From: a virus
IMG/VR virus record: IMGVR_UViG_3300042197_003184
Span: 32,001 to 96,000 of that record
Strand: one strand, 5' to 3'
Length of the DNA stretch: 64,000 nucleotides
This document shows, one piece after another, positions 301-17,502 of the stretch. Under the pieces are notes generated by a model that was not told the DNA's origin, did not search any database, and saw nothing but the letters and a program-made list of their open reading frames with translations. Each line of letters starts with the position of its first letter. The first letter of the stretch is position 1. The translations under genes and the position numbers were made by a program.

Positions 301-3300
301 ATGGCTGGTTTTAATCTAACGGCTCAACTTAATCTACAAGGACCCTCGAATGTCAGAAAAATAGTTTCTGATATTCAGAGACAATTAGGTACTATCAAAG
401 GCACAATAGATTTCACTCTCAATCCGGGTACCGCCAGAAATGTTACTCAATTAAATTCTGCACTCAAAACACTAAACACCACTTTTACTACAACCAACAG
501 AACAGCAGTGTCTGCTGCTAATGCTATATCTCAATTTAATGCTGCCGTTAGCGGTATTAACACCAGATCCTTGACCACGAACATTGCCAGCTCTGCAACA
601 GCCACACAAAAACTGACATCGCAACAAAGACAAGCATCCAAAGCTATTGATGAGTCAGCTTATAGTATGCAGGAGTTTGGTAAGCAGTCTCAATTGGCTA
701 TCAAAAGATTTATTGCCTATAGCGCTGCTGCTGGTCCTATTTTAGCAGTAGCTAATGCTGCTCGTAAGGGTATTAGCGCATTTATAGAGTTTGACTCAGA
801 AGTTGTTAAATTACAACAGGTGACTGGCGAATCAGCAGGAGGACTAAAGGAACTAACTAATACTATCACGTCATTATCTAGTGGGTTGGGCGTTTCATCT
901 AGCGAATTGGTTAATGTTTCGTCCACATTAGCCCAGGCAGGCTTGAGTGCTAGAGATACAGAAAAAGCACTGAAAGCTTTGGCTCTTAGTTCTTTGGCTC
1001 CGTCATTCGATAATATGAATCAGACGGTAGAAGGTAGTATCGCTCTTATGAGACAGTTCGGTATTCAGGCCGGTTCTCTTGAGGGAGCATTGGGGTCGGT
1101 TAATGCCGTGGCTGCTAGATTTGCCGTAGAAGCTAGCGACATTATTGCCGCTATTCAGCGTACTGGTGGTGTGTTTGCCAGTGCCAGTAAGGGGGTTAGC
1201 GAAGGTACAGATGCTCTTAATGAATTTATTGCTGTGTTTACCAGCATTAGAGCGACTACTCGTGAAAGCGCAGAAACTATTGCTACAGGCTTGCGTACTA
1301 TTTTTACAAGAATACAAAGAGGCGGAACAATAGACGCTCTAAAGGAATATGGGGTTAACCTAACGGATTTAGACGGAAAGTTCGTTGGTGCCTACAAAGC
1401 GGTCGAGTTGCTGTCAAAAGGTTTGAATCAGCTTGACCCTAGAGATATTAGATTCTCCAAAATCGTAGAAGAGCTTGGTGGATTTAGACAGATCGGTAAG
1501 GTTATTCCTCTTATCCAGCAGTTTGCTACGGCACAGGAGGCACTCGCTGTTGCTCAACAAGGACAAGGCTCCTTAACAGAAGATGCTGCTGTAGCACAGC
1601 TTGCACTAGCAAATCAGATCTCCAAAGTTCGAGAAGAATTTTTAGCTTTATTTAGAGATATAGGAGCATCTGACACATTTCAAACATTAGCTAAGGGAGC
1701 GCTACAATTAACCAGCGCTATTATTGGCGTTGCTGATTCTGTGAAGGGGGTATTGCCAGTTTTGGCACTAATAGGTTCTATCAAGGGTACACAAGCCTTG
1801 TTGGAGTTCGGCTATGGTTTTACTGGGAGATCATCATCTGGAAGCAATAGAAAAAATACTCGTAATTTTGCTACTGGCGGTTATGTCCCCGGTGTTGGTG
1901 ATACAGATAGCATACCAGCCAATCTAACCCCGGGCGAGTATGTTATGAGTAAAAGGGCTGTTAGATCTATCGGTGTTGGAAATTTAAATAAAATGAACAA
2001 AGCTGGTGGTGGTAAAATATCAGATTATGGCGGAGCGCCTGCTGGTACAACCATCAACAACAGAGAAAATAAACCTGTTGGTATATCTAATGATACCTTT
2101 AGTTATTCAGGATTTTTTAATCCCCAAGGGATTTCTGTCACGATATCTTACGACAAAAAAAATAAAAGATATACAGCTCAAGCCCCAGCCGGATCCAAGG
2201 TTTCTTTAACCAAAAACGATATCAAAACCCTATTCAAAAACAATAAAGCTTCAGCGACAAGATTCGAAGAAATTAGTAGGGGTACTCTGGGAGGAACATT
2301 AGCCAATACCACAGACCCTAATTATCCTATCGATATTATTGATGGACAAAAACTATACGACACAAAGCTTTCTGTACCAGGAAACTATAAAGAAAAAGAA
2401 GCGGTACTAAAGGTTTTAAACTATAAACTAGATAAAGCCAATATAGGATATCAATATAACCAAGGCTCACAAGCGATCAAATTGTCTAGACCATCACCTA
2501 GACTACTAGGAGCTAATCTGACGCCAGCTTCTGATCCATTAAAAGCCCGAGAGTCTTTTTCTTTCGTATATCCAAAATTTGAAAATATACAAACCAAAGA
2601 TATCCAGGATCTACAGACCGATTTACAAAACAGATACGAGACATTCTCTGGTCTTAGTAGTCAACAGAATAGTGGTAAAAATTTATCTGATGCTGCCAAT
2701 AGGCTCAAAAACTTATCACAATCAGCCATAGAAACCTATCAATCCGATGCCAGAGGCATGAGTGCTATTGATGAAATTTCAGGCGATAAAAATATAATAA
2801 ACCTACTAAGAAATTATTCTTCTAGATCTTCTGGTGGCATAATTCAGAAATTTGCTACAGCCGGGGTGGTTAAAGAGCCCCAAAACATACCGGATAAAGT
2901 CGCTGAACTAGCTGCCAAAAAACAGCTATCTATACAGGACGTTATATTGTCTGAGTTCCAAGCTATTACAGGAGCTAGACTAAAGAGAGATCTTGGTATT
3001 CCAAACGCCGTTAGTTTACCCAGGGTTCCAGATTTACGCGCCGGTGTTGGTGTTGATAAAATCAAAGAGTTGGTCAATCGATATCTGCATATGAAAGGTA
3101 TAGAGAGCGCAGCAAAAGCAGAACAGATTGCTAAGATGAGAAAAGTAGCAATCGCAGGATTATTTCCGTTAGATTACTCTAAGGATTTTGATGACTGGAC
3201 TCTAGAAGATGGTAGACAAATCTATGGTATGGTTAGAGGATTTGGGAGTGAGTTCTTAGATGATATTCAACTAATGCAGCAGCGCACCATGGCCGCTCGC

Positions 3301-6300
3301 GACGAGTTTGCCATTAATGTACAAAACCGAAAAGCTTTGGGGTTATTGGCTGGCTCTTCAGTTCAGGGGCCTATTCAGCCTCTGGCGATAGATTTTGATG
3401 AAACACTAGCTCTTGGCACAAAAATGGTTGATGCTCAAGGAGAAGAAGACTTAGCGGCATATCGAGACCCAACAAAAGTTGCCGATAGCTTAGCCAAAGC
3501 TCGCCCAACAACTTTGGCCCAGCGCATGGCTGAGATAGAGAAAAGCAATCCAGGAGTTCTAAGAAAATACTCTAGAATCCTAACCGCCAGACCACAAGAA
3601 ACAGCCAGCATCATTGCTGCTACACTAAATAGATTTGGTTTACCATATCTAGAAAGTGACATCACTGGCCTAGCAAAAGGTCTTGGTACCAATATTCCAC
3701 TAGCAAAAGCCAATGATTTAGGTATCTTTGAAAAACTTATCGACGATAGCGAAGCTAATGTCAAAGCCGTGAGATCGTCGGGGAAAAATGCTTTTCAATA
3801 CGGAGAAGTCGAACCTCTTACCTCCGCAGCTGCTGGAAAAATCGGACAGTCAAATGTTGAAGCTAGTATTTTAGAAGGAGCTATAGGACAACAACTAGGA
3901 TACCCTATAGATATTGCGGCTCTGGAAAGAAATAGAGCAGTAGACTTTCCCCAAGGTCTTGGTAGAGCTGCCCAATATTTTGGCATACCTCCAAATATAG
4001 AAACAGAGATCAAAAGAACATTAGATGGAGACGCTTTTTTTAAAGCCAGAGGAGAGTTCAGTAGGTATTTTACAGAAAATCCTTCTTTGTTTAGCAACGG
4101 AGGTCTGGTTCAGTTTTTTGCAGATGCTGGGGAGATCAAAGATAGATCTACTAAGAATAGAAGAAGAGGAGCTTATGGAGCAAGAGGTTTTGTTCCGTTA
4201 AATAGTAGAGAATACGAAGCCTTTGCTGATAAAGCTTATGCCGAGGCCGGTCCGTATGGTGGTCCTGGATGGGGAAAATCAGCGGGCGTACCAATGCCAA
4301 AAGTTTTGGCGGATTATGCTGAAAAAATAAATAGATATGTTTTTGAAACTGGTGGTGCTGGATTATCTATAGGTAAGAAATTAGTTAGGATTCCAGACAA
4401 TATTGAGCCAGAAGCACTGGAAGCGTTAAAAGAAGACTTGATTAGACAGTATGACGGATGGTATGCTGAGATAGAAGAGGTGATGCCGTTTGGTAAGGCT
4501 ATTAACACATCAAATCCAATAACTGTCGCCAAAAATGCCAGGATGCAAGCTGCCGCTATGGCCGAGGCTGGAAATGCAGCCTATACACAAGCCGAGGATG
4601 CTATATCTGGTTTCAAGAAAACAGGAATCCTTGCTGGTTTTGATCCGTCAATAGAGAGCCATATCAAAACTTCTTTCCCAGCATATATTAAAGAGCTAGA
4701 GTCTTCTTTGAGATCCGAGACAGACCCTGATGAAAAATCTTCTATACAAAGAAAACTCAAAAAGGCTCAGGCAGCATGGCCAGATTATCAATCTTTGTTA
4801 TCTGGTACTCCGGTAGCTAATCAGGGTAGAATTACTGGGCTTTCAGAAACTCTCAATACCCTATTGGAAAGATATGGTAGTCCGGTATCTTTTGGCGAAA
4901 TAGATAATATTATCAAAGCTATGGGCTCTAAATTGCTTGGCAAAGCCTCTGGTGGTCTCATATCTTCTTTTGCTAGTGGTGGCAAAATTGGATTAGATGA
5001 TATTCGCAAAACCATAGAGGATAAATATCCCGATTATAAGTTTAGAATTAATCCAAAATCTAGTGGTTTTGGCTATAGAATGTTAGTAAGACCAGCTTCC
5101 AAAGATGCTCCTGAATCTTTGATGGCTTTTGATCTGGTGTCCAGACTATCTGATGCTCCAGCATTGGCAGAAAAACTCATAGGCAGAATACAAGAACAAC
5201 AAGGTGCTCAAAAATTTGCTTCTGGTGGTTATATTCCTGCTATGGTCAGTAATGGAGAAGCATTTGTACCCCCCGAAACCGCACAGAAGATAGGCTTTCA
5301 TACTCTAAACAGAATGAATCAAGCTGATCGTAATGGTATGGGTCAATTTGCTGGTGGAGGAGATATTAGTTTATTTAAAGGACCAGGTAGTGGGACCAGC
5401 GATAGTATAGGGCCTATTCCTTTGCCTGTTGGTGGTTTTGTTATTCGTGAAGCGGCTACCAGAGCTTTGGGTTTATCTAGAAAAGGTGGTGGTCCTATAG
5501 GACAAATCAGGTCTTTTGCTGTCGGAGGAAATAAAGGAGTTCCTGTATTGGGGACTAATAGACCCGATATTGTAAGTAGGTCAACCGTTGCCGTGTCTCC
5601 AGACACTATTCAGGGCGTTGCCACCTTGATCGATATTCTAGGAGAACTCGGTAGTGTAGCAAAAAATTCCGCAGATCTCATTAAAACCAATGGAGAGATT
5701 AGTTATAAGGTAGTAGAAAAAGCATTGGTTAAAGACATAGAAAGATTAAAAATATCTGGAGCAGGAATAGATAAAATTGCAATTGCTGAAAAATTATTAT
5801 CTGAGACTAGAAATAAAGGTAAAGCAGAAGTAGATAAACAAAAAAACCTACAAGGATTATCCTCTTTGAGAGGTAGTTCTACCACAGCCATACTTGGTGG
5901 ACAAACCGTAGGTAATCTACAAGCAGGAGCTGGCGCTGGTCAGCAAGCCATTGAAACACAAGCTCAGATGATAATAGAAGAAAAGATCAAAGCTCGTGGA
6001 GGGAAGGTATCAGATAAGCAAAGAGCTAAGATAGTTGAGTCGTCGTATGTTGATGCTGCATCTCAAATAACTGGAGTTAATAAAAAAGATTTTAAGGCTG
6101 CTGGTATAGGAGGATCAGATATACAGCAATATATTGCTGAATCGATGAGAGATCGTAAGACCCTATCCCAAATGGATAAACAGCTTATTGCCATAAAGCA
6201 AGAAGAAGTCCGTAGATCTGCAAATTTTTCTAGTTTGTCCAGAACAGAACAACAGAGGCTGTTACAACAAGCCAAACAAACAGCCGAACAAGAAATTAAA

Positions 6301-9300
6301 ACCAGAAGAGAAATCGTTAATCAATTAGCAGCCGAACAGGGTCGAGCAGGTGTGGGCGATGGTTCCGGTTCTATGGCTAGCGGACTATTTAGAAGACTAG
6401 AGAATCCTTTGGTTGCTCTTGGTCTTAGTAGTATGGGATCATTATTGGGATCCGGCACTCCTGGCAGTTCCAGCGAAGCTTCTCAAAACGCAGGTATTCA
6501 ATCTGGCATATCTACACTTAGTCAAGGATTATTTTTATCAGGACAAGTAGCTAGTATATTAGGTCCGGTAGCCGGTGGTGCTACTTTAGCAGCTTCGGCT
6601 TTGGCTTCGATAGCCAGCGCTTTCAAAGATGGGCGCAACGCATTTATAGAATTTGAGAAAAACCTAAGATCACAAAGGTTACAGAATACGCTTGAGGCAT
6701 TAGGTAACACATTTGCCCAACTAGAGAAAGACGTTAAAAATTTAGATCTACAAAATCAGGTATCTTCTCAACTAGTATCTGCTGGGTCAGAAGCGCAATC
6801 TTTAAACGATATTGTTACAGAAATACCTAAAGCGTTTTGGGTCAATATGTTTGATGCTGCTTTTAGCAGCAATCAGAGAGAAGCTTCGGATAGATCAAGA
6901 ATACTTGAAAAATTTGGAATATCAGCATATTTGTCTTCTACTTCCGCTTTTGGTTCAGAAGATAACAGAAGATTTTTCAACAGACAACTAATACCAGAAC
7001 AAGCACTAGCCAATGCAAGAAGTTTTTCTGAGGTAGGATTAAATACTCGTAGATTCATAGAAAATAGGGCAGATGCTGGAGCTAGCCTCAACGAAATAAT
7101 GAACTCGGCCGACTTTGCTCAGTTTGCTCGAAACATAGCTTTATCTAATGTTGAAGTTCAGAAACAAATATTGGCTATACAAAACTCAACATCTGCCAAT
7201 AAAGAAGCCGAACAACAGGCTATTATCACCAGATATGCAGAATCAGAAACCATAAAAATCGCACAAGCAGCTTCTAGACGTAGAAATTCCGAAGGATTAG
7301 ACAGAGAAACCAGATCATTCTCTGTTAGTATACAAAGAATTTCTCAAAATATGCAGGACGTAATTTCTGTCATAAATAGTAATCTTACTAGATTTAATGA
7401 AAAAATAGAGTACACCGTAGCAGCCATGTCTGGACAAGCCAGATCTGGACAGGTGTCTTTTGGTACTCTAGACGTTTTAAGGTCACCAAACGCCTTTTCT
7501 GGTTTCGACAGACAATCAGCCGCCGACAGAGCAGGATCTTTATTTGGTGGCGACCAAAAACTCATCAGCTCCCTCCTTGTGCTAAACAAGAACCTAGAAG
7601 AAAATATTATGAGAGCTATAGATTCTACTATAGCTAATAATCCATCTTCTAGCGATACAAAAATAGGTTTAAGTATAGACCAAGCTGTTCAAAACACTAT
7701 TAATCAATTAAACCTACCAGACGCTATAACCAAACAACTTAGCAGAGAAATAGGATTGGCCGTTGATAGACTGAGACAAAGCGGTAAAGAAAAGATAGAT
7801 TTTGAAGCATTAAAAAACGAGGTGCCTCAGCTAGAAAATATTATATCTAGCACTAGAGTTGCCCAGGAAGGGGCGATAAAGGCTTTGGAAAACTGGCAAA
7901 ATCAATTAAATGAGTTGACTCAGGCCATGAATAAAAGCTCGGATCTACAAATTTCTGCTGCTGATCGTAGAAACCAAGCCGAAGATATCGTAATTAATAG
8001 CAGTATAGAACTAGCTAAAGCGCTAGGTAGGAATTTCTCTGCTGGCTTTGGTAATAACTTAAGAGATAGACGTACCGCACGATTAACGGGAGGAGCTACT
8101 TCCCCAGAGGATATTTCAAACAGGTTAAGGAATTTAACACAACTCGGGGAAAGTCAATCAGCCAGCCTAGCTGCTCAATCAGAAAGAAGTGTTGGAGATA
8201 CCGGATCTTTGGATTCTATTGTGGCTAATCAAAGAGCTTTGAGACAAACGAATAACGAACTCAGACAAACACAACAGGCTTTGAAAAATTTAGCAGAAAA
8301 TTCCGAGGCGGCATCTCTGGCCTTATCTTCTATCCAAGAAACACAACAAAGACAGCAAGGCCGGGTTGCCTTAATAGAAAAACTAGTATCTAGTACGCCA
8401 GAAGAACTGTATAAATTCAGTGCCGCAGCAGACAGGCTTCAAAAAATAGCCAGAGGACAACCGGTTAATCAAACCTCTGACGAAAGAAGAGAAACATTAT
8501 CTGTATTTAATGATATAGCTCCTATGTTGGGTTCTTCTTTAGAAGCCAATAATATGAGAGCCAATATGCTTGAATCAATGCTTAGTGAATCTGGTGTTGG
8601 TTTAACTCCTCAGTTTCAGGCTATATTAAATGCTCTCAGAGATCCCCAAACCGACCCAGCCACACAAAAGGCGATAGAAGAATATTCTAAAGCTATTGAT
8701 ATACAATCTAGAGCTAATATAGAATTAGCAAAAATTAATACAGACCTAGCAGACCAAATAGCAGATGCTTCGGCTCGTGCCCTAAAGGATGCTTTAACAA
8801 ATCAGGTAGTTAAGTTTGAAAGCACTCAACTGGCAGATATTGCCAGAGGACTAAGATCATTAACCACCACAACACAAAACCAAGCAGCACCCCCCGTAGC
8901 CAGAGCAGATGGTGGTATAATCTATGCTGCTACAGGAACTAACGTACCAGATTTTGCTCCGAGAGGAACAGATACGGTACCTGCTATGTTGACACCAGGA
9001 GAATTTGTAGTTAATCGTTCGGCAACACAAAAAAATCTGCCACTACTTAATGCTATAAACAATGGCTATAGTAAAGGAGGCAGGGTTTCTTATTATCAAG
9101 ACGGAGGTTATGTTAGCAGTACGCTGAGAGAAGAATATCAAAACAGAGAACCATTTAAGGAATCTAAAGGCTCCTATATGGTATTGCCAGAAAATATAGG
9201 AGAGCCAGAAGATTTATATACTTGGAACAAAGTTCGCAGTGTTGCTGTTCCGTCAACAGATAATGTTGAAAAAATTAATATAAACTCTAAACCCAATGAT

Positions 9301-12300
9301 CAGCTATATATAAAAGCCAATAGACAACTAGGTTATGGTTATACGGGATTTAGGGCTCAATATGATACTTCTGCCGGAGAGTATAGTTTTTGGAGATTCA
9401 ACCCAGAGGGGTCTTTATCTCCGAGTATACTAAAGCCTTTAGGTCGCTATTATTTAAGCCCAAGACTTCTTGAGCTTGGTTCAGGTTCAGAAAAACAAAA
9501 GCTGGTCGATCAAACCGGCATACCAAACCGAACAGAAATCGAGGATTATACAGCAAGACTAAATAATATTTTGAAACATCTACCGTCAAAAGCATCCAGA
9601 TCTGCTGGACAAGGAACTATTGAAATTGATGGCTCTAAAATCATAGTAGAAGATCAAAAGTTTGCTGGTAGCACCGGACAACTAACTGCTTATACCAAAA
9701 ACCAAGAAGTTGTTGTAAAAAATCTAGCCAAGTCTCTTGATAGCAACTTAAATTATGGATTATATACATCGTCTCCTATGGTTGGTTTGACCCATAGTCT
9801 TGATTCTATAATGGATTTTTCTGGAGATCATTGGGGTCGTTTTTTCTTTGGTAGTGCTGCTCAAACCCGCAAAGAATCCTCTGGTAGTTCTGAGTCTTTA
9901 TTACGAAGCACTAGTGGCGGTAAATATGCTTTAACGTATAATCCAAAATTAGATAGCTTATTTGATCCTGATAAATTACCAGACATTATTAGTGCATTGA
10001 AATCGTCTCAGGAAGCACTAGCTAATGAGGAATTTGCAACATCAGATAAGAATACTGGTATAGACAAACAGAATACAGCACTTAGAGAGTTATATATTGG
10101 CACCATAGCTAAACAAATATTGGAGGGTAGAGCATCCTCAAATCAACAAGATGGGCAATCAACAGACAAAGAATATGCTTATAAGTTTGGACCAGAATTT
10201 GCTAATGCATCTAAATTAACAGTTTATGGTGTGACAACTGACGAATGGACTAAATCCAGAGATGGCTCTGCTTCTTATCTACAAAGATTTCAAAGCATTA
10301 TCGGCAAACAAAAAGAAGCTAAATACTGGGATCCTGATGGGACGTACAAAACTCCGTTCGATATTGCTCCTAGAAGCGATTTGAATAGTAAGAAATTTTT
10401 CCCTTGGGTAGCTGGTGACGCTCCGGATCTGGCCGTTTTGGATGCTGAATTAAAAGAACGAGCAGATGCCACCCAGGCAGAAACGTATGGTAAACAAGGA
10501 GACACTATCCTAAAAAGCGGCAGATTCAAATTTAATGAGCTGCCATTTACTGTGCCATACGCTATGTCTTATGTGTCTTTAGAAAAGCCCAAAAAATATG
10601 ACGCAGCTACGGGGACTTATACAGACGAGAACCTACTGCCCAATGGGCTACAAAAAGCAGATATTATTAGTTCAGATAACTTATTTAGGAAAGCTAAGGA
10701 TGATTTTCCTAGTGTAACGGCAATTACGGATGCTACCGGCTCCAATGATAGCTCTGGTTCGTTAGGCTATGTTGCCGGTTTGATACAGAACTTTGTGAAT
10801 CAGTCTGATAGGTTCAAAAAATATTTTGGACTAATCAAAACGTCCTACTCAGAAGATCAGCCATCTGTTGAATTACAAAAGTTAAAATCGCAATTAAAAT
10901 ATTCTACTATTAATTTGGCTGGTAGTCAAAGTCCTTTCTTTGGCTTCTTAACGGGCTCAAATAAACAGTATACAGGTTATGATTCGCTAACCAGACCACT
11001 AACTATTGGCGATGTATTATTGGACCTAATAGACAGAGAAGCCAAGAATAAAACCTCAACTTTATCTGCTATAAAAAATCAAAGATATTCGTCTAAACCA
11101 GAAGACTCTGACAACAAAACCAACTTCAAACTATCCCAGTATCCTGCACTGGCTCAGGGGTTAATATACTCAGCATATGACCTATTTGGTTCTGGTAAGA
11201 CATACGAAATGCCTAATAGTTTGGGTCGTGGCTGGTTTAGTCCTCGAATGAGCCAAAGATATAATAGTATTTTTGAGATTCAGCCTGAACTTATTCAGGA
11301 TTATATGAAACAGCTATCTATTATTTTTGGAAATCAATATGCTAATCTAGAATCGAACTTATCTAGATTTGTTGGAACACCAGAATATGACAAAGCTATA
11401 GAGACCATGAGCTACTTACAAGGTGCTCAAAAGGCTTTCTTTATGATTGGTGATCCGGCGACTGGTACGTCGGTACTAGGAGGCTTGCTGGATAGATCAA
11501 TGTTTGATGATAGGGTTTTTGACCAAGCCGAAAAAGAAGCAATAACCAATGTTTTCAAATCGTTAGGCGCTTCTGGTAAAGACTCCAGAATTCGCAGTCG
11601 TTTATTGGATACTATATCGGAGGATGAGAAAGTAGATTGGGAAAGACAATTAACTGGGTCTAGAATTAATGATCCCAAAACAAAAAACTCAGCAACACAA
11701 GAATTTGGCGAAGTGAATGTTCCACAAACATTCAATGATCTTTTTGATTTAGGTATTAATCCATATAATCAATTTACTAATCGAAATATTAGAAAATCTA
11801 TTTTTGATAGATTTTTAAGCAATATTGCAACAGCTCAAGACAGAAGAGGCAGACCACTATTCTCTACTAGTGGCGGTAAAGAGTTTGGAGATGCTTTAAG
11901 CAATCTGCGTTTGTGGTATGGTGGAAATGACGAAGATTGGCAGGGCTTAGATTATTTATATGATAAAAACATCAAACCCATAGAGAATACCGATACTGTC
12001 CCATCATATAATGATAGATGGAACGAACTCAATAGCTTTAATAGAAAAGATAATCTCTATAAAGATGCTGAAACCTCTCACTCATTAGTGGGCGGTAGAG
12101 AAAAATTTGGAGAGCTTCCTCCATTAGATTTTTATAAAGACAGAGGAGACGAGATCCAATATCGACGTACTGGTGGTATTATTTATGCTTCTCAAGGATC
12201 ATTAGTTAACTTTGAGCCTAGAGGCACAGATACTGTTCCTGCGATGTTGACTCCAGGAGAATTTGTCGTAAATCGATCTGCTACGCAAAAACACTTGCCG

Positions 12301-15300
12301 CTATTGAGAGCGATCAACGACGGAGCAAAGGGTTATAGTAGCGGCGGTGTGGTATACCTCAGTAGCGGAGGTTTAACACCAGCACAAGAAACTAGATTTA
12401 ATGAACTTAGTGGTATGTCTTCTAGAAATAGAGAAGAAGAAAATGAGTACATTGATCTGAAAAATAAAAGAATGTCTGGAGGGGCACAATCGAGTTCTAC
12501 AACAACGCAATCTAATATTCAACAGTCACGCAGAACCGCTGTAAGAGAGCGTAATCAGAGAATGGCGCTAATGGCCATACCTCCCAACGAAAGAACTCCA
12601 GAGCAGCAAGAAAGATATAATGCTCTGATAGCTAAGAGAGATAAAGATAGACCAGAAATAGCTAAACGCAATGCTAATTATAGAGCTTCACAAGCTTATA
12701 ATGCAGAAGCTGAAAGACGCAGTAACGAAAGACTAGTGAATCAATATGCCGATGAATACAGATCGTCTGGTAGCGAATTATCCCCAGAAGAGTGGGCAGC
12801 ACAAAACAAACCAGGAATGAGGGGTCAGAGACTGGACGGCTTCTTAGCTAGAGTATCTGGTTCAGACTATGATTATGGTCGTAAAATGACTGACCAGGAA
12901 TTTGCTGACGCTGGTACAGCTAATAGAGCAAGGCTAGATGCTTCAACACAACAAAAGGCTCAACAATACACCTCAGGGTCTTCACCTGCTCAACAGCCAG
13001 CCGCACAAACCGGCTCCAAACCAATGTTACCGCCTAGTGAGCAAGAACAAGAACCAGCAGATTCCACAGTCCCTTCTATACCTGCGCCTCCGGCACCGGC
13101 GGCAGAACCACCAAAACCAGCGCCAGCACCAGCGGTTGAGCCACCCAAACCAGCGCCAGCACCAGCGGTTGAGCCACCCAAACCAGCGCCAGCACCAGCA
13201 CCAGCACCAGCGGTTGAGCCACCCAAACCAGCTACAGTACCAGCACCAGTTTGGGCAAGAGGAGGAACAGACGAGGATCCGTTTGCTGAACGAGCCAAAC
13301 CATCACCAGCAGACGCCGCTAAAACAAGAGCAGAAGAAAGAAGAACAGCTTCTGAGGAGCAACAAACAGAAGCAAGAAAAGAAAGAAGAGAGCTAAGACG
13401 AGCAGCTGCTCAACAAAGAGAAGATATTATAGCAGAAACTCGTAGACGACTAGAAATGACTATTAGTCGTGAAGAAGCAACAATTAAAGATAAAGCCAAG
13501 AACAGAGAAGAGTCCGGTTGGTGGGCTGCGTCTATGAGAGGTATGGGATTAATGTCTGATCCTTACGAAGCAGAAATGGCCGCTTCTCGACAAAGAATCA
13601 CAGCAGCTAGAATGGGTTTGTCAGAATTAAAGACTGCTACTGTAGACGTTTCTCCGTCAGGATATGTGCGAGATACGTTCAAAGTTGAAAACTTTAATGC
13701 TGCTAGAAGATTAGCTGGATTAGACGAGGTAACTACCGGAGTTGACTCTGCTGGAAATATGACAGTATCTCGCGTGGAAAAAGATGAGACAGAAAAAGCT
13801 AATGATGCTGCAAGAAGAGCTGCTGATACGGCCTATAGCAGACAGTTGATGGATAATGAGCAGTCACAGATTACAGCAGCTAGAGACATTAGTATAGATA
13901 GTGTTTTGGCTGTTGGTGGAGTAGCTACAGGAGTTGCTGGTATGGCTACTCGTGGTGGCACAATGGCTCTTCAACAAGCAGGCAAAATAGGACTTAGACA
14001 AGTAGCTAAAACAGCAGCCTTGGAAGGCGCTGCTGAAGGTTTAGCTGGAGGAACCACAAGAGCAATTGATGACGTAACTAGAGGAGCTAAAACAACTCAA
14101 GAAGGCATATCTTCCGCACTATTAGAATCTACTATAGGAGGTGTTGCAGGTAGTGTGTTGGGTCCTGCTTTTTCTGTAGGAATACCGGCTGCTGGCAGAG
14201 TATTAAGTGGTATGGGTTCGTTTGTTGGAGATATGGCGAGTCCTATTACCAAGCCAATAGGCGACTTAATGTCATCTACATATGATTCAATTTCTCGCGG
14301 CTTATCAGGAATGTCAGATTATTTGGATTTACCCACCCAGTCCAGATACTCAGCATTACTACCGTCCGATCCTAAGCAAGCAAAACAATACAGGGCTCTT
14401 GTGTCTGCTGGCCGTGGACCTAGAGAAGCTATCGAAGAACTAGATGAAATCCTAAGAACCGGCTCTAACAGGTTTGACAAACAAGAAGAAGCTTTCGCCC
14501 AATGGACATCTAAGAATCTCTTTGATTTTGTTGGTATGCAGCCCGGTAGTTTGGTAAGTAGACTACGAAGCAATCCTCTCGACGGGTTATTTGATAATAT
14601 TAACTCGGGACCAGGAATAGGCAGACCAAGAGGGTCTTTATCGGAAATTGCTGGGGTAGATAAGTATAGAATACCCAATTTATCAGACGAAGCTGCCCGA
14701 CCAGTACAGAAAATGAAAGTAACAGCAGCTCAAGTCACAGAATATCAAAAATTAATAGATTCTGGAATGAACCCGGCATCGGCTCAACAACAGGCACTAA
14801 GACAAACTTCAACAACAGAAACAGCGCCCGCCACGGCCGCTCAAATCTATAGACAAAATTTACCAAGAGCGATAGACGATCCATCTCGTATGGAACAGGG
14901 TTTGTATAGAACGCAAGTGCGTAAGGGCTCATATGACAATCCCGATAATATGAACAGGTGGTTTTATCCAAAAAATCCTGGTATAGATATGATCGGAGAC
15001 TCTATAAATACCGGATATAAACCCAGATTTGCTGTAAAAGAAGGTAAAATGAACGAAATGATTGAGCGCATGGCAGCCGACGAACGGTTGTCTTGGATGC
15101 TTGGTCCGAGCGGTTTTAAACAGCAGCCGTTTGGAGAAGAGGTATTATCAGGTAGAGACAACAGATTTTTAGTTCTGTATAGCAGTAGAGGTACGTCCGA
15201 CGAAGCTTTAGCTATCACTCAACGTATGGAAGAGATTGGAGAAGATCTTCTTTTTGCAGGAGGGGCGAAGGATTATGGCGACAGAATGGCGCTAGGAAAA

Positions 15301-17502
15301 TTCGGCAGTACCAGATATGATCCAGATCTCACAACGCTTACCAATCCCCCAGGACTACAAAAAACACTATTAGACTTAAGACAAAGATGGCTGTCAGAGC
15401 GTGGCTCTTCTTCATACGATCCTGATTTCGCTGCTTTTGACCAAGCATTAGTCAAACAACAAGACTACAGACTAGCTCTTTATGAGGCCGGTAAAAGAGC
15501 ACCAGGCACAATGATGGATAAATTTTATAAGGATTATCCCGACTTATTCCCGAGTTATGCTGGAGATATCAGCTACTCACCAGCCTCTACTTCGGCACTA
15601 TCGGATGCTGTACCAGTAGCAGCTAAACAACCTAACACATCAACGTCTACTGCTCCGACTGACAAGATTACAATAACCCCTCCCAATGACATAGCACAAC
15701 CAACCGCGATTTTCAACAGAATAAGAGCAACAAGACAACTACAGTCTTCAGCAGAAAATTCAGCTGGTATCAATCTATCAGCACCTGAACAATTGTCTTT
15801 GACAGAAGATGCTTTGTCCAGACTACAAGAAATTCAACTAGATAGCGACTACGTCAGCAATCGCGCCCTTGGTAATTTTCGCGGTGATATCAAACAGGGT
15901 GAATCCAAAACAGGATTGTTTAGTGGTACTATACAGATTGGAAAAAAGAGCATAGGCAATCTAGAAGTTTTAGGACACGAGAGACTACACGCCGCATCCT
16001 TTATCATGCAACAATTAGATAATATTACTGGAGGAAATATAGCTCCAGAAGTTTTAGATTTAATGGCGAACAAATTAAATTTAAATTTAAAATCGGTAGA
16101 GATAATAAGATCTGGCGCTGGTAAAAGAAGTCTAAATTTTGCAAAAAACACAACCGATCCAGAAAAGCTTTCCGCTTTACAAAACATGGATATTTTACCA
16201 GCATCACTACCGGATCAAAAAATACTAAAAGCCTCCGTTCTTGCAGAAAGATTCCTAGAAGAGTACCAGGTTGCTCAAGCATTAAAATTTGGAGAAAATA
16301 TATCTAATATAAATTTACGTAGTGTTGATACTACAAGAAAAGCCCTTCTAAAAGAACTATCACAATTTACAACAGCAGACAGTATAGCTCCAATTAAAAA
16401 GAGACTGTCAGAAGTTATTCCAACAAACAAATTAGATACACTACTTGATTCTGGTGCTGGTCCTTTTACTCCTAAAGATATATACCCACTTCCCACCAAT
16501 AAATCAGGAATACTAGATAATATCTTGTCTATTATACAGTCTCCTGGAAATCTGAGTGAAAATCTAGGTTCCAAACTAATGCAACAACCTGGCCTAAAAG
16601 ACTTTATCGACAAGATAGCGTCTGATAATCCTCAGGTAGCAAGCCTAGCAAAATCAGCTAAAACCCCATTAAAATTCTTAACTAATCTATCAACATTTGG
16701 ATTGGGGTTCTCTGCTGCTGGCATTGCTCTAAGAAATCTAATGTCAACAGATCCCAATCGGCCGAATGTTGTAGAGGCTCGAACCAGATCTTTGATGCCC
16801 GGAGAAAATCCAGAAGACCCAAATACTAAACCCTTAAGATCTTATTATTCTGACGGTACCCCAGTACCAGAAGACGAACAACCCAAAGAAACAAAAAGAA
16901 TGAGCACCGGAGGTATTGTTTATGCCAATAATGGTGCTTTTATAGCTGCTACCAGAGGATCTGACAGTGTTCCGGCAATGCTAACTCCGGGCGAGTTTGT
17001 GGTAAATAGACAAGCAGCAGCTAATAATATGACATTATTACATGCTATTAATAGTGGTCATTATACTCACGGAGGATTAGTTAAATATTTAGCTAATGGC
17101 GGGGTGGTACAGCCCAAATATTTGGAGTATGGCTCTCAAAACCCAGTAAATTCTATTAACAATCAGGCTGCTAATAGTGGTGTATTATCTAGTAGAGTTA
17201 GCCAGAATATGGTATCGCAACAGGTTCAGGCACCATCTTTTGACTACTCAAAAATGGAGCAATTATTTAATAGGTTTGAACAAGCTATGGATAGGAGCGC
17301 CAGCGCCATTAAAGACGGAGGCACAATCGAACACAAACTCACAGGAGAAGTCAAAACAGCATACGACCAGAAATCTATCCAAGATATTATTGGTAGATCT
17401 GTTGGTATCAGTAATTCCAACACTAACGCCCAAGTCAATAATGCTCAAGCAAATACAAATAGAACATTATTCAACAATACTGACGGAGCAATAGACCCCT
17501 AG
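301..17502 (+). CDS. Giant tail tape measure protein (5733 aa) with embedded enzymatic cargo domains
   Basis: The N-terminal ~500 aa read as a TP901-type TMP core (FIEFDSEVVKLQQVTG...LAQAG...TRESAETIATGLRTIFTRI...GGFRQ). There are long helical Ala/Gln/Leu-rich stretches, hydrophobic segments and repeated FAxGG/DSVPAMLTPGEFV modules. It lies upstream of tail/baseplate genes. Confidence 0.9.
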   Translation: MAGFNLTAQLNLQGPSNVRKIVSDIQRQLGTIKGTIDFTLNPGTARNVTQLNSALKTLNTTFTTTNRTAVSAANAISQFNAAVSGINTRSLTTNIASSATATQKLTSQQRQASKAIDESAYSMQEFGKQSQLAIKRFIAYSAAAGPILAVANAARKGISAFIEFDSEVVKLQQVTGESAGGLKELTNTITSLSSGLGVSSSELVNVSSTLAQAGLSARDTEKALKALALSSLAPSFDNMNQTVEGSIALMRQFGIQAGSLEGALGSVNAVAARFAVEASDIIAAIQRTGGVFASASKGVSEGTDALNEFIAVFTSIRATTRESAETIATGLRTIFTRIQRGGTIDALKEYGVNLTDLDGKFVGAYKAVELLSKGLNQLDPRDIRFSKIVEELGGFRQIGKVIPLIQQFATAQEALAVAQQGQGSLTEDAAVAQLALANQISKVREEFLALFRDIGASDTFQTLAKGALQLTSAIIGVADSVKGVLPVLALIGSIKGTQALLEFGYGFTGRSSSGSNRKNTRNFATGGYVPGVGDTDSIPANLTPGEYVMSKRAVRSIGVGNLNKMNKAGGGKISDYGGAPAGTTINNRENKPVGISNDTFSYSGFFNPQGISVTISYDKKNKRYTAQAPAGSKVSLTKNDIKTLFKNNKASATRFEEISRGTLGGTLANTTDPNYPIDIIDGQKLYDTKLSVPGNYKEKEAVLKVLNYKLDKANIGYQYNQGSQAIKLSRPSPRLLGANLTPASDPLKARESFSFVYPKFENIQTKDIQDLQTDLQNRYETFSGLSSQQNSGKNLSDAANRLKNLSQSAIETYQSDARGMSAIDEISGDKNIINLLRNYSSRSSGGIIQKFATAGVVKEPQNIPDKVAELAAKKQLSIQDVILSEFQAITGARLKRDLGIPNAVSLPRVPDLRAGVGVDKIKELVNRYLHMKGIESAAKAEQIAKMRKVAIAGLFPLDYSKDFDDWTLEDGRQIYGMVRGFGSEFLDDIQLMQQRTMAARDEFAINVQNRKALGLLAGSSVQGPIQPLAIDFDETLALGTKMVDAQGEEDLAAYRDPTKVADSLAKARPTTLAQRMAEIEKSNPGVLRKYSRILTARPQETASIIAATLNRFGLPYLESDITGLAKGLGTNIPLAKANDLGIFEKLIDDSEANVKAVRSSGKNAFQYGEVEPLTSAAAGKIGQSNVEASILEGAIGQQLGYPIDIAALERNRAVDFPQGLGRAAQYFGIPPNIETEIKRTLDGDAFFKARGEFSRYFTENPSLFSNGGLVQFFADAGEIKDRSTKNRRRGAYGARGFVPLNSREYEAFADKAYAEAGPYGGPGWGKSAGVPMPKVLADYAEKINRYVFETGGAGLSIGKKLVRIPDNIEPEALEALKEDLIRQYDGWYAEIEEVMPFGKAINTSNPITVAKNARMQAAAMAEAGNAAYTQAEDAISGFKKTGILAGFDPSIESHIKTSFPAYIKELESSLRSETDPDEKSSIQRKLKKAQAAWPDYQSLLSGTPVANQGRITGLSETLNTLLERYGSPVSFGEIDNIIKAMGSKLLGKASGGLISSFASGGKIGLDDIRKTIEDKYPDYKFRINPKSSGFGYRMLVRPASKDAPESLMAFDLVSRLSDAPALAEKLIGRIQEQQGAQKFASGGYIPAMVSNGEAFVPPETAQKIGFHTLNRMNQADRNGMGQFAGGGDISLFKGPGSGTSDSIGPIPLPVGGFVIREAATRALGLSRKGGGPIGQIRSFAVGGNKGVPVLGTNRPDIVSRSTVAVSPDTIQGVATLIDILGELGSVAKNSADLIKTNGEISYKVVEKALVKDIERLKISGAGIDKIAIAEKLLSETRNKGKAEVDKQKNLQGLSSLRGSSTTAILGGQTVGNLQAGAGAGQQAIETQAQMIIEEKIKARGGKVSDKQRAKIVESSYVDAASQITGVNKKDFKAAGIGGSDIQQYIAESMRDRKTLSQMDKQLIAIKQEEVRRSANFSSLSRTEQQRLLQQAKQTAEQEIKTRREIVNQLAAEQGRAGVGDGSGSMASGLFRRLENPLVALGLSSMGSLLGSGTPGSSSEASQNAGIQSGISTLSQGLFLSGQVASILGPVAGGATLAASALASIASAFKDGRNAFIEFEKNLRSQRLQNTLEALGNTFAQLEKDVKNLDLQNQVSSQLVSAGSEAQSLNDIVTEIPKAFWVNMFDAAFSSNQREASDRSRILEKFGISAYLSSTSAFGSEDNRRFFNRQLIPEQALANARSFSEVGLNTRRFIENRADAGASLNEIMNSADFAQFARNIALSNVEVQKQILAIQNSTSANKEAEQQAIITRYAESETIKIAQAASRRRNSEGLDRETRSFSVSIQRISQNMQDVISVINSNLTRFNEKIEYTVAAMSGQARSGQVSFGTLDVLRSPNAFSGFDRQSAADRAGSLFGGDQKLISSLLVLNKNLEENIMRAIDSTIANNPSSSDTKIGLSIDQAVQNTINQLNLPDAITKQLSREIGLAVDRLRQSGKEKIDFEALKNEVPQLENIISSTRVAQEGAIKALENWQNQLNELTQAMNKSSDLQISAADRRNQAEDIVINSSIELAKALGRNFSAGFGNNLRDRRTARLTGGATSPEDISNRLRNLTQLGESQSASLAAQSERSVGDTGSLDSIVANQRALRQTNNELRQTQQALKNLAENSEAASLALSSIQETQQRQQGRVALIEKLVSSTPEELYKFSAAADRLQKIARGQPVNQTSDERRETLSVFNDIAPMLGSSLEANNMRANMLESMLSESGVGLTPQFQAILNALRDPQTDPATQKAIEEYSKAIDIQSRANIELAKINTDLADQIADASARALKDALTNQVVKFESTQLADIARGLRSLTTTTQNQAAPPVARADGGIIYAATGTNVPDFAPRGTDTVPAMLTPGEFVVNRSATQKNLPLLNAINNGYSKGGRVSYYQDGGYVSSTLREEYQNREPFKESKGSYMVLPENIGEPEDLYTWNKVRSVAVPSTDNVEKININSKPNDQLYIKANRQLGYGYTGFRAQYDTSAGEYSFWRFNPEGSLSPSILKPLGRYYLSPRLLELGSGSEKQKLVDQTGIPNRTEIEDYTARLNNILKHLPSKASRSAGQGTIEIDGSKIIVEDQKFAGSTGQLTAYTKNQEVVVKNLAKSLDSNLNYGLYTSSPMVGLTHSLDSIMDFSGDHWGRFFFGSAAQTRKESSGSSESLLRSTSGGKYALTYNPKLDSLFDPDKLPDIISALKSSQEALANEEFATSDKNTGIDKQNTALRELYIGTIAKQILEGRASSNQQDGQSTDKEYAYKFGPEFANASKLTVYGVTTDEWTKSRDGSASYLQRFQSIIGKQKEAKYWDPDGTYKTPFDIAPRSDLNSKKFFPWVAGDAPDLAVLDAELKERADATQAETYGKQGDTILKSGRFKFNELPFTVPYAMSYVSLEKPKKYDAATGTYTDENLLPNGLQKADIISSDNLFRKAKDDFPSVTAITDATGSNDSSGSLGYVAGLIQNFVNQSDRFKKYFGLIKTSYSEDQPSVELQKLKSQLKYSTINLAGSQSPFFGFLTGSNKQYTGYDSLTRPLTIGDVLLDLIDREAKNKTSTLSAIKNQRYSSKPEDSDNKTNFKLSQYPALAQGLIYSAYDLFGSGKTYEMPNSLGRGWFSPRMSQRYNSIFEIQPELIQDYMKQLSIIFGNQYANLESNLSRFVGTPEYDKAIETMSYLQGAQKAFFMIGDPATGTSVLGGLLDRSMFDDRVFDQAEKEAITNVFKSLGASGKDSRIRSRLLDTISEDEKVDWERQLTGSRINDPKTKNSATQEFGEVNVPQTFNDLFDLGINPYNQFTNRNIRKSIFDRFLSNIATAQDRRGRPLFSTSGGKEFGDALSNLRLWYGGNDEDWQGLDYLYDKNIKPIENTDTVPSYNDRWNELNSFNRKDNLYKDAETSHSLVGGREKFGELPPLDFYKDRGDEIQYRRTGGIIYASQGSLVNFEPRGTDTVPAMLTPGEFVVNRSATQKHLPLLRAINDGAKGYSSGGVVYLSSGGLTPAQETRFNELSGMSSRNREEENEYIDLKNKRMSGGAQSSSTTTQSNIQQSRRTAVRERNQRMALMAIPPNERTPEQQERYNALIAKRDKDRPEIAKRNANYRASQAYNAEAERRSNERLVNQYADEYRSSGSELSPEEWAAQNKPGMRGQRLDGFLARVSGSDYDYGRKMTDQEFADAGTANRARLDASTQQKAQQYTSGSSPAQQPAAQTGSKPMLPPSEQEQEPADSTVPSIPAPPAPAAEPPKPAPAPAVEPPKPAPAPAVEPPKPAPAPAPAPAVEPPKPATVPAPVWARGGTDEDPFAERAKPSPADAAKTRAEERRTASEEQQTEARKERRELRRAAAQQREDIIAETRRRLEMTISREEATIKDKAKNREESGWWAASMRGMGLMSDPYEAEMAASRQRITAARMGLSELKTATVDVSPSGYVRDTFKVENFNAARRLAGLDEVTTGVDSAGNMTVSRVEKDETEKANDAARRAADTAYSRQLMDNEQSQITAARDISIDSVLAVGGVATGVAGMATRGGTMALQQAGKIGLRQVAKTAALEGAAEGLAGGTTRAIDDVTRGAKTTQEGISSALLESTIGGVAGSVLGPAFSVGIPAAGRVLSGMGSFVGDMASPITKPIGDLMSSTYDSISRGLSGMSDYLDLPTQSRYSALLPSDPKQAKQYRALVSAGRGPREAIEELDEILRTGSNRFDKQEEAFAQWTSKNLFDFVGMQPGSLVSRLRSNPLDGLFDNINSGPGIGRPRGSLSEIAGVDKYRIPNLSDEAARPVQKMKVTAAQVTEYQKLIDSGMNPASAQQQALRQTSTTETAPATAAQIYRQNLPRAIDDPSRMEQGLYRTQVRKGSYDNPDNMNRWFYPKNPGIDMIGDSINTGYKPRFAVKEGKMNEMIERMAADERLSWMLGPSGFKQQPFGEEVLSGRDNRFLVLYSSRGTSDEALAITQRMEEIGEDLLFAGGAKDYGDRMALGKFGSTRYDPDLTTLTNPPGLQKTLLDLRQRWLSERGSSSYDPDFAAFDQALVKQQDYRLALYEAGKRAPGTMMDKFYKDYPDLFPSYAGDISYSPASTSALSDAVPVAAKQPNTSTSTAPTDKITITPPNDIAQPTAIFNRIRATRQLQSSAENSAGINLSAPEQLSLTEDALSRLQEIQLDSDYVSNRALGNFRGDIKQGESKTGLFSGTIQIGKKSIGNLEVLGHERLHAASFIMQQLDNITGGNIAPEVLDLMANKLNLNLKSVEIIRSGAGKRSLNFAKNTTDPEKLSALQNMDILPASLPDQKILKASVLAERFLEEYQVAQALKFGENISNINLRSVDTTRKALLKELSQFTTADSIAPIKKRLSEVIPTNKLDTLLDSGAGPFTPKDIYPLPTNKSGILDNILSIIQSPGNLSENLGSKLMQQPGLKDFIDKIASDNPQVASLAKSAKTPLKFLTNLSTFGLGFSAAGIALRNLMSTDPNRPNVVEARTRSLMPGENPEDPNTKPLRSYYSDGTPVPEDEQPKETKRMSTGGIVYANNGAFIAATRGSDSVPAMLTPGEFVVNRQAAANNMTLLHAINSGHYTHGGLVKYLANGGVVQPKYLEYGSQNPVNSINNQAANSGVLSSRVSQNMVSQQVQAPSFDYSKMEQLFNRFEQAMDRSASAIKDGGTIEHKLTGEVKTAYDQKSIQDIIGRSVGISNSNTNAQVNNAQANTNRTLFNNTDGAIDP
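13081..13250 (+). repeat. Coding tandem repeat PAPAPAVEPPK (33-nt unit) within the TMP
   Basis: ccagcgccagcaccagcggttgagccacccaaa occurs about 3 times plus degenerate flanks, forming a Pro/Ala-rich linker. Confidence 0.9.

Follow-up and report, generated by a model that had tools for sequence, protein, structure and literature searches.

The window analysed here is a stretch of 64,000 nucleotides (nt) that covers bases 32001-96000 of the 139,964-bp IMG/VR virus record IMGVR_UViG_3300042197_003184 (estimated completeness, 94%). It contains an open reading frame (ORF) at 301..17502 on the + strand, which stays open over 17.2 kb and encodes a protein of 5,733 amino acids (aa) and 621 kDa. Judged from its sequence, this ORF is the tail tape measure gene of an uncultured phage of about 140 kb. 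The tape measure protein (TMP) is divided by an iterated peptide module of about 69 aa with the pattern xxGG…D[ST]VPAMLTPGEFV…GG…GG, and sequence comparison with its relatives gives good support to the view that this module is a conserved, selected junction element bounding exchangeable cassettes.

The evidence for this view comes from a family of giant proteins with the same design. A database search gave 285 proteins of 3,300-7,900 aa, and 120 giant metagenomic relatives were examined; a pattern scan of IMG/VR gave 175 confirmed stretches, of which 80 loci were fetched. Modules are present in every one of the 120 relatives, in 3-11 copies with a mode of 5. When the proteins were cut at the modules and the pieces were clustered, the 769 pieces revealed one layout, in which "=" stands for a module: CORE = V = HEL2 = [G or other block] = 0-6 cassettes = tail of 100-280 aa. 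CORE was found in all of the 121 giant proteins with 60-90% identity, HEL2 in 115, and G in 103, while the variable region V falls into two main classes across the family. The remaining pieces form 142 clusters, including 89 singletons, and their orders and combinations vary. The shortest complete gene in IMG/VR, of 1,962 aa, is CORE = V = HEL2, the longest exceed 7,500 aa, and many mid-sized IMG/VR members have other blocks in place of G. The complete short members L029/L030 and L067/L069, of 1,962 and 2,606 aa, show CORE = V = HEL2 without G and most cassettes. All modules lie in a single open frame, and none of the 80 loci has them split over two frames or genes. We hold this architectural description of the family with high confidence, and no description of such an iterated-module cassette array was found in the literature.

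The ends of homology are concentrated at the modules. When the TMP was compared with the 120 relatives, homology blocks of 80 aa or more had 1,650 ends, of which 70% were located within 25 aa of a module or a GG pair, although such zones make up 14.6% of the TMP length. This clustering bears out the junction role that had been proposed for the module in the original prediction, which was made from this DNA alone. Coverage by relatives is near-universal at aa 1-560, 2100-2950, 3800-4040 and 5530-5620, intermediate for a sub-block of V that contains a predicted phosphatase, and close to zero at aa 600-850, 1300-1600, 3000-3600 and 4100-5500. Pairs of close relatives show the exchange directly. 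In P0023 and P0018, CORE, G and the cassette c7 are 90-92% identical, while the V class is swapped and an extra cassette is placed between two shared ones; in the same comparison, P0017 has a core with 93% identity but a G with only 34% and another set of cassettes. At module 3 of the present protein, where its lineage-specific cassette starts, the GC content rises from about 0.36 to about 0.43. Relatives thus keep the core, HEL2 and the modules but exchange, insert and reorder the segments in between, and such swapping is what the same prediction had expected. Two of its other statements need revision. The phage was thought to have multiplied the module itself, but the module is iterated in 120 of 120 relatives and its multiplication is ancestral to a large environmental family. 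The insert at aa 2940-3950, which corresponds to G, had been taken for free cargo; it is found at the same position in 103 of 121 proteins and is hence near-backbone.

The TMP contains six copies of the module together with three solo double-GG motifs. A hidden Markov model (HMM) of 69 positions, iterated on the family, detects the six copies with independent E-values (i-E) from 4e-7 to 2e-29, and the boundaries listed below were taken from this HMM. By regular expression, full modules begin at aa 523, 2868, 3955 and 5534 (nt 1867, 8902, 12163 and 16900), and variant modules are located at nt 5215 (FASGGYIPAMVSNGE) and nt 5347 (FAGGG...GPGSGTSDSI). Paired GG motifs are located at aa 842, 1264, 1548, ~1727, 2923, 4012 and 5588 (nt 2824, 4090, 4942, ~5479, 9067, 12334 and 17062). 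Since the last three of these are the C-terminal ends of full modules, the short motif appears to be the terminal dozen residues of the module used alone. Neither motif is expected at such a frequency: 14 xxxGG-hydrophobic motifs were observed against 0.23 expected, and 5 strict double-GG motifs against 0.05 expected (2,000 shuffles). The regular-expression and HMM scans recovered all modules, variants and paired motifs that had been listed previously, at offsets of a few nucleotides (3-6 nt for the paired motifs), and the earlier segment boundaries agree with those of the HMM to about 20 aa. Three positional subtypes are kept family-wide, namely the lambda-like type A after CORE, the tandem B/B' before HEL2, and type C after HEL2 and after each cassette, and this conservation suggests position-specific roles. 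AlphaFold modelled the modules as coil with one short helix, at a predicted local distance difference test (pLDDT) score of 30-45. Complex prediction of a module homotrimer gave a score of 0.03 against a mark of 0.42, which counts neither for nor against oligomerisation.

The module is related to a single-copy element of ordinary tape measures. As stated in the original prediction, the gpH protein of phage lambda contains FATGG at residues 733-737, GEFV at 753-756, IGVGNL, and YATGG at 779-783. The family HMM finds a single copy in gpH at residues 733-790 (i-E 7e-10), a profile of the four full copies matches residues 750-787 of the lambda TMP in PDB (8iyk_H, E 0.007), and module 1 shares 35% identity over 69 aa with gpH 747-813 in BLASTP (pairwise E 6e-6). 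The B' variant, of the GPGSGTSDSI type, matches residues 1016-1052 of gp46, the TMP of Pseudomonas phage JBD30 (8rk3_A). A profile made from the type-C modules only no longer matches lambda gpH or T5 pb2 in a search of PDB sequences, and profile searches gave no sequence match between T5 pb2 and the module. In cultured phages the module is found at one place in each genome, where the annotation is always tape measure or an "endolysin" mislabel of one; single copies are present in TMPs of Mycobacterium, Gordonia, Nodularia, Brevundimonas and Paracoccus phages. PHROG profiles place the module near the C-terminus of ordinary tape measures and internally in longer ones.

The modules are under protein-level purifying selection. 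Across 420 full copies, conservation is 80-99% in GTDTVPAMLTPGEFV, in the GG pairs on either side of it and at several hydrophobic positions, and the residues just beyond the module fall to background conservation. Modules 2 and 3 have the same residue at 31 of 33 core positions, only 15 of which use the same codon, and their DNA is 79% identical over 99 nt; module 4 has 23-24 residues in common with modules 2 and 3, with 7-8 codons in common. Identical module residues are encoded by different codons in half to two-thirds of cases. Because the residues are kept while the codons diverge, the copies are old and maintained by selection on the peptide, rather than products of recent duplication or gene conversion.

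The blocks and modules of the TMP are arranged as follows (window coordinates).

301..17502, + strand: the complete tape measure ORF
301..1854, + strand: CORE, aa 1-518, a TP901-type core with a hydrophobic Gly-rich stretch at its end
1855..2037, + strand: module 1, aa 519-579, type A, lambda-like FATGG...GEYV...IGVGNL (HMM i-E 2e-20)
2038..5181, + strand: variable region V5, aa 580-1627 (cluster V5, in 47 of 121 proteins)
3367..3807, + strand: predicted HAD-superfamily phosphatase domain, aa 1023-1169, from a fold model and motifs
5182..5535, + strand: tandem variant modules B (aa 1628-1689) and B' (aa 1690-1745) (HMM i-E 1e-14 and 4e-7)
5536..8910, + strand: HEL2, aa 1746-2870, second backbone block (cluster in 115 of 121)
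8911..9114, + strand: module 2, aa 2871-2938, type C (HMM i-E 1.6e-29)
9115..12171, + strand: block G, aa 2939-3957, aromatic-rich and fast-evolving (cluster in 103 of 121)
12172..12378, + strand: module 3, aa 3958-4026, type C (HMM i-E 2.1e-28)
12379..16908, + strand: lineage-specific cassette, aa 4027-5536 (singleton cluster)
16909..17109, + strand: module 4, aa 5537-5603, type C (HMM i-E 3.3e-26)
17110..17499, + strand: C-terminal tail T6, aa 5604-5733 (cluster T6, in 17 relatives; 76% identity to P0002)

CORE scores 78.4 bits against PF10145 (cut-off 33.2) and 91.8 bits against TIGR01760 (cut-off 28.8), and ten of the eleven PHROG families that it matches are annotated as tape measure. HEL2 has no Pfam or PHROG match. 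Helix formers are abundant in it and aromatics few, and its Gly/Ser/Ala hydrophobic stretch is like those of other tape measures. As no more than a lead, TMP_2/TMP_3 clusters are among its neighbours in the Atlas feature space, at 0.89-0.90. V5 is cut into four sub-blocks by solo double-GG motifs at nt 2824-2868, 4090-4134 and 4942-4986; its middle sub-block alone is widely shared among relatives, and G845/G846 and G1267/G1268 are invariant in the V5 alignments. T6 occupies the same position as the gpI-binding C-terminus of lambda gpH, and by this analogy we presume that it would act as the tail-tip anchor.

The clearest candidate enzyme among the segments is located in V5. We ran AlphaFold with family alignments on two constructs, one with module 2, G and module 3, and the other with V5 and the B/B' pair. 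The V5 model has a mean pLDDT of 45 and is confident only at aa ~999-1169, where the domain at aa 1023-1169 reaches pLDDT 70-91 (AF2). This domain is predicted to be a HAD-superfamily phosphatase that is closest to the 3'-phosphatase of T4 Pnkp. It superposes on the latter (5uj0_B) with a Z score of 11.3 and a root-mean-square deviation of 3.3 Å, with 125 of 142 residues aligned; the other top folds are 1ltq_A (T4 Pnkp, Z 10.4) and 4xrp_A (the RNA-repair enzyme Pnkp1, Z 10.1), and nearly all of the next ~45 rows are HAD enzymes. The HAD motifs appear in order as D1031-x-D1033-x-T1035, T1095-A-R-P, K1136 and D1148-D1149. The Asp residues and A1096-R1097-P1098 are invariant in three independent alignments (12, 8 and 10 relatives), while T1035 is not invariant in the third and K1136 is invariant in two of the three. 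Since no Pfam or NCBIfam HAD model matched at E 0.1 or better, membership in the superfamily rests on the motifs and the fold. V5 had been described previously as four globular inserts, and the model agrees for the HAD part, whereas the rest of V5 is of low confidence. At nt 2250-2370 (aa ~650-690), an E...PID...DxK pattern makes a candidate PD-(D/E)xK nuclease; the pLDDT of this region is 23-49 and the motif residues are not invariant in the V5 alignments.

The model of G with its flanking modules has a mean pLDDT of 49, and G is confident only at aa ~3660-3950, its last ~290 aa, which are all-helical and gave no PDB fold match in Foldseek at E up to 0.001. A search for related loci by G on its own yielded none. 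The lineage-specific cassette at aa 4027-5536 gave 16 matches in 1.84 billion representatives, and the sole specific one comes from the C-terminal end of another tape measure, a fragment that has a module of its own. The cassette contains a Pro/Ala repeat, a helical portion with charged residues, a hydrophobic Gly/Ala stretch, and a portion that looks globular and includes HERLH. The Pro/Ala repeat at nt 12900-13200 (aa ~4200-4300) has about four copies of units like PAPAPAVEPPK; it raises the GC content to 0.54-0.56 and thereby produces spurious alternative-frame ORFs at 12938-13396 (+) and 12990-13298 (-). The Gly/Ala stretch at nt 13860-14250 (aa ~4520-4650) resembles the hydrophobic segments that precede the module in lambda gpH and CORE, and its database matches are only unrelated proteins with low identity. 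At nt 15750-16700 (aa ~5150-5470), the GC content falls from 0.43 to 0.32-0.39, with the step at ~nt 15,800, exactly where the homology to P0122, the only relative of that part, ends. As there is no GG motif at this boundary, not every junction between sub-cassettes is punctuated.

HERLH, an HExxH motif, is located at aa 5226 (nt 15976-15990), with 0.002 expected by chance given the 14 His residues in the protein. His is very rare in the TMP, at 14 of 5,733 residues, and two of them belong to this single HExxH. The motif is retained in P0002 and L045, two relatives of that sub-block, and is absent from P0122. Family-wide, 65 HExxH motifs were observed in the 121 proteins against 0.55 expected; they are distributed over 47 proteins and occur in at least 8 conserved contexts that resemble the active-site helices of zincins. 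Seven HExxH windows were tested against Pfam and gave no match. By their sequence, the HExxH cassettes may be zincin-like.

Few other domains could be recognised. Pfam detected EF-hands in two cassette families, and precomputed Pfam annotations report ADP-ribosyltransferase and SNase domains in two relatives of more than 5,000 aa at whole-protein level; SHD1 domains are also ascribed to relatives above that length. Searches with Pfam, PHROG and NCBIfam on the inserts of this TMP, two whole relatives and nine cassettes yielded only EF-hands and sub-threshold noise, and comparison of V5, G, the lineage cassette and the C-terminal 201 aa with PDB sequences gave nothing meaningful. Atlas leads to LPD23/PBECR5 score only 0.81 and are leads only. 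The segments had been interpreted as a string of effectors. The HAD enzyme fold among the cassettes fits this interpretation; the backbone nature of HEL2, the near-backbone position of G and the lack of recognisable function in most cassettes do not. The interpretation is thus partly supported, and the cassettes may serve as effectors.

Some TMPs, including those of mycobacteriophage TM4 and of the TP901-1 type, bear small peptidoglycan hydrolase inserts that are used in entry. These enzyme-insert TMPs of about 1,000-2,000 aa carry the same module in a single copy, but they have one or two small motifs and no combinatorial array. Comparison with processed tape measures is also informative. In lambda gpH (853 aa), a C-terminal part of ~14 kDa is cut "from the glycine-rich region" after tail assembly, leaving gpH* of ~78 kDa, which corresponds to residues 1 to about 710; neither the protease nor the precise cut site is known, and residues 818-849 of the released fragment stay bound to gpI in the tip (PMC12617516). 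Our mass calculation places the end of a 78-79-kDa gpH product at residues ~710-727, just upstream of FATGG at 733. Like the present TMP, gpH has a homologous module after a hydrophobic Gly-rich stretch, followed by a short tip-anchoring C-terminus. Unlike it, gpH has one module and no inserted domains, compared with six modules and ~5,000 extra residues here. In T5 pb2, cleavage after R1127 separates a muralytic domain from a segment whose last 43 residues will anchor in the hub once this has opened; both pieces stay in the tail and are expelled, the small fragment first (PMC10038345). For JBD30 gp46, residues 1022-1066 are predicted to form a "hook", and cleavage at 1066 has been speculated to let this hook anchor the TMP in the baseplate (PMC11445458). 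This hook region overlaps the match of the B' variant at 1016-1052. Unlike the present protein, T5 pb2 and JBD30 gp46 have only one junction each and one small domain at the C-terminus.

Two other kinds of large phage protein resemble this family in part. Thermus phage P23-45 gp96 is a 5,002-aa TMP whose fused virion RNA polymerase is functional and goes to work in the host right after ejection (PMC10770324). It is likewise a giant TMP bearing an enzyme and shows that TMPs can deliver enzymes, but it has one N-terminal enzyme and no reported module array, and it is unrelated in sequence, as the present core has no match in the phage collection. Polyvalent proteins, which occur in phages and in conjugative elements (Iyer et al. 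2017), are very large, contain many unrelated enzymatic domains, and are proposed to be injected with the DNA and split by embedded zincin-like peptidases (PMC5512222). The survey that describes them makes no mention of tape measures, and the word "tape" occurs 0 times in it (PMC5512222). They share with this family the many unrelated domains that vary combinatorially (142 clusters in 121 proteins), and HExxH motifs recur here. In contrast, the scaffold here is a TMP and the delimiter is a conserved TMP module, and no Pfam polyvalent-protein domain was found in this TMP or in the sampled cassettes.

Based on these comparisons, we consider it rather likely that the protein is a tip-anchored TMP array that carries host-directed cassettes through the tail lumen, with the modules as hook or cleavage points. 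The canonical C-terminal unit of a TMP, a module with a tip anchor, would have been reiterated, giving backbone blocks and exchangeable cassettes on one polypeptide. Because a TMP is incorporated through its C-terminal anchor and the tube grows around it, insertions upstream of the anchor would enter the lumen and leave first. Cassettes covalently tied to the tip-anchored TMP during tail assembly would be threaded into the lumen in this way, and the restriction of all modules to one ORF (0 of 80 loci split) fits such threading. Upon infection, the cassettes would be expelled ahead of the DNA, C-terminal end first, and act on the host, while the helical and hydrophobic blocks would form a conduit. 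Each module would serve as a "hook" for docking, as a site where cleavage separates the units, or as both. Given this modular design, the tail probably carries enzymes into the host. The delivery of host-directed cassettes has a slightly better than even chance of being right, and cleavage at the modules, suggested by analogy with lambda, T5 and JBD30, is a possibility that we regard with some doubt. We put forward only tentatively, as somewhat unlikely, a fuller version in which the module is a combined cut-and-dock signal, with cleavage at every module once the tail is assembled, a stack of hooked proteins in the tail lumen and their ordered release. The cutting would then be performed by embedded zincin-like cassettes if present, or else by another protease or by the module itself; the anchor would exit first, followed by the lineage cassettes, G, and finally the channel-forming HEL2 and the core, which would dock in the opened hub.

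Several observations weigh against this delivery array. Most cassettes have no Pfam, PHROG or PDB relative, and since AlphaFold gives the modules and the greater part of V5 and G a pLDDT below 50, many segments may not be folded enzymes but extended or disordered chain. With their conservation and fixed position, HEL2 and G behave as backbone and not as cargo. The embedded HExxH was rejected as a universal processing enzyme, as only 47 of the 121 proteins have one. A protease of the lambda gpK type, JAB or NlpC/P60, had no match in the genome at E up to 1, which leaves such a GG-directed processing enzyme without support, although a divergent or host enzyme may do this work. In addition, mass estimates put the cut of lambda gpH before the module, whereas the model for T5 and JBD30 has it after the anchor, so the analogy fixes no site. 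Finally, three or six chains of 621 kDa in a lumen of ~4 nm need a long tail; we estimate that three chains require at least ~350 nm of 4-nm lumen at lambda-like packing. The tail length predicted at 0.15 nm/aa is ~250 nm if CORE and HEL2 are counted, versus ~860 nm for the whole chain.

The main rival to the delivery array is a pure ruler, in which the whole 5,733-aa chain measures a tail of 0.5-0.9 micrometre, the segments are length stuffers without host-directed function, and the modules are periodic binding sites for the assembly chaperone, the tube wall or sister chains that hold a long and metastable chain in register. Such a ruler has a precedent in Thermus phages P23-45/P74-26, where a 5,002-aa TMP goes with a tail almost 1 micrometre long (PMC10770324, PMC10034513); in the present protein, most segments have low-confidence models and no known domain, and the position-specific subtypes A, B/B' and C are conserved as structural registration marks would be. 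Yet the catalytic residues of the confidently folded HAD domain are invariant and HExxH is enriched 100-fold. Moreover, TMP length varies four-fold among relatives with 60-90% core identity, so that under a pure ruler each cassette swap would alter the tail length, and the cassette content is combinatorial and not length-conserving. The catalytic residues, the HExxH enrichment and the length variation disfavour a pure ruler, which we consider unlikely. The blocks after HEL2 could instead fold outside or below the tube as a baseplate or central-fibre complex with the modules as inter-domain joints. G, with its conservation, ~1,000 aa and confidently predicted helical C-terminal domain, would suit such a tip structure, as would the genes that follow the TMP, none of which can be recognised as coding for a distal tail, hub or tip protein. 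However, the TMP C-terminus lies inside the hub lumen in every solved siphophage (PMC12617516, PMC10038345, PMC11445458), minimal relatives without G and all cassettes still keep CORE = V = HEL2, and free gain and loss of cassettes is unusual for load-bearing baseplate parts; we find this alternative improbable.

The remaining two explanations concern the DNA itself. Homology breakpoints coincide with modules, and the DNA of modules 2 and 3 has 79% identity over 99 nt, as expected if the modules were mere DNA-level homology patches that promote recombination and had no peptide function. This is highly improbable given the synonymous divergence with at least 15 near-invariant residues over 420 copies, and given the conservation of the peptide as a single copy in distant TMPs without cassette exchange; besides, 63-79% identity over ~100 nt makes a poor substrate for homologous recombination. 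The record is metagenomic and the gene contains repeats, so a chimeric ORF could in principle arise from contigs mis-joined at the repeated module. We give hardly any credence to this artefact, because the same ordered architecture is seen across independent samples, in 285 database proteins and in 175 IMG/VR stretches, the repeats are short with 63-79% DNA identity, and the frame is open over 17.2 kb.

The surroundings of the gene are partly consistent with its assignment. Genes for the terminase large subunit, the portal and other unrecognised structural proteins are located upstream in the usual order, and two small overlapping ORFs lie immediately 5' of the tape measure gene; family searches of the neighbouring genes recognised no tube, chaperone or tip gene around it. 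No tail sheath family was detected in the genome. Together with the scores of the core models and the upstream terminase and portal, this indicates a tape measure gene and a tail that is probably non-contractile. Ten consecutive + strand genes follow at 17533-47412, with products that include proteins of 1,751, 2,099 and 2,189 aa. They have essentially no recognisable family, apart from phrog_15511, a PHROG domain of unknown function, in four and a Laminin_G_3 domain in one; in family searches, none of them could be named as a distal tail, hub, tip or fibre protein. When the TMP core was searched against the phage collection using blastn and tblastn, zero matches were obtained, and so the phage has no cultured close relative there. 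A scan of species genomes in GTDB identified five contigs (L085-L089) of metagenome-assembled genomes (MAGs) with this TMP core. Their labels conflict (Alphaproteobacteria, a Thermoplasmatales archaeon, Chitinophagia, Proteobacteria and "bacterium"), and consequently no host can be assigned from them; most likely, they are phage contigs that were mis-binned into freshwater MAGs.

TMPs are usually seen as rulers with an occasional single cell-wall enzyme, and the family described here suggests a way for a non-contractile tail to bring proteins, in a set that can change, into the host. With its hundreds of members, full-length genes of 1,962 to nearly 7,900 aa and a conserved junction element, the family would extend the idea of polyvalent proteins to delivery through the tail lumen. 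The module, now defined by more than 700 copies in which the invariant residues stand out clearly, gives a handle on the role of the C-terminal module of lambda gpH and on its cut site, and an easily recognised marker brackets a large pool of probably host-directed domains. Among these, a Pnkp-like phosphatase could, speculatively, counter RNA- or nucleotide-based defences. If cleavage and ordered release prove to be true, the module could serve to bring proteins of choice into phage tails, and if cutting is coupled with docking as proposed, any domain placed between two modules would be delivered ahead of the DNA, which would make the tape measure an injection scaffold that encodes the order of delivery.

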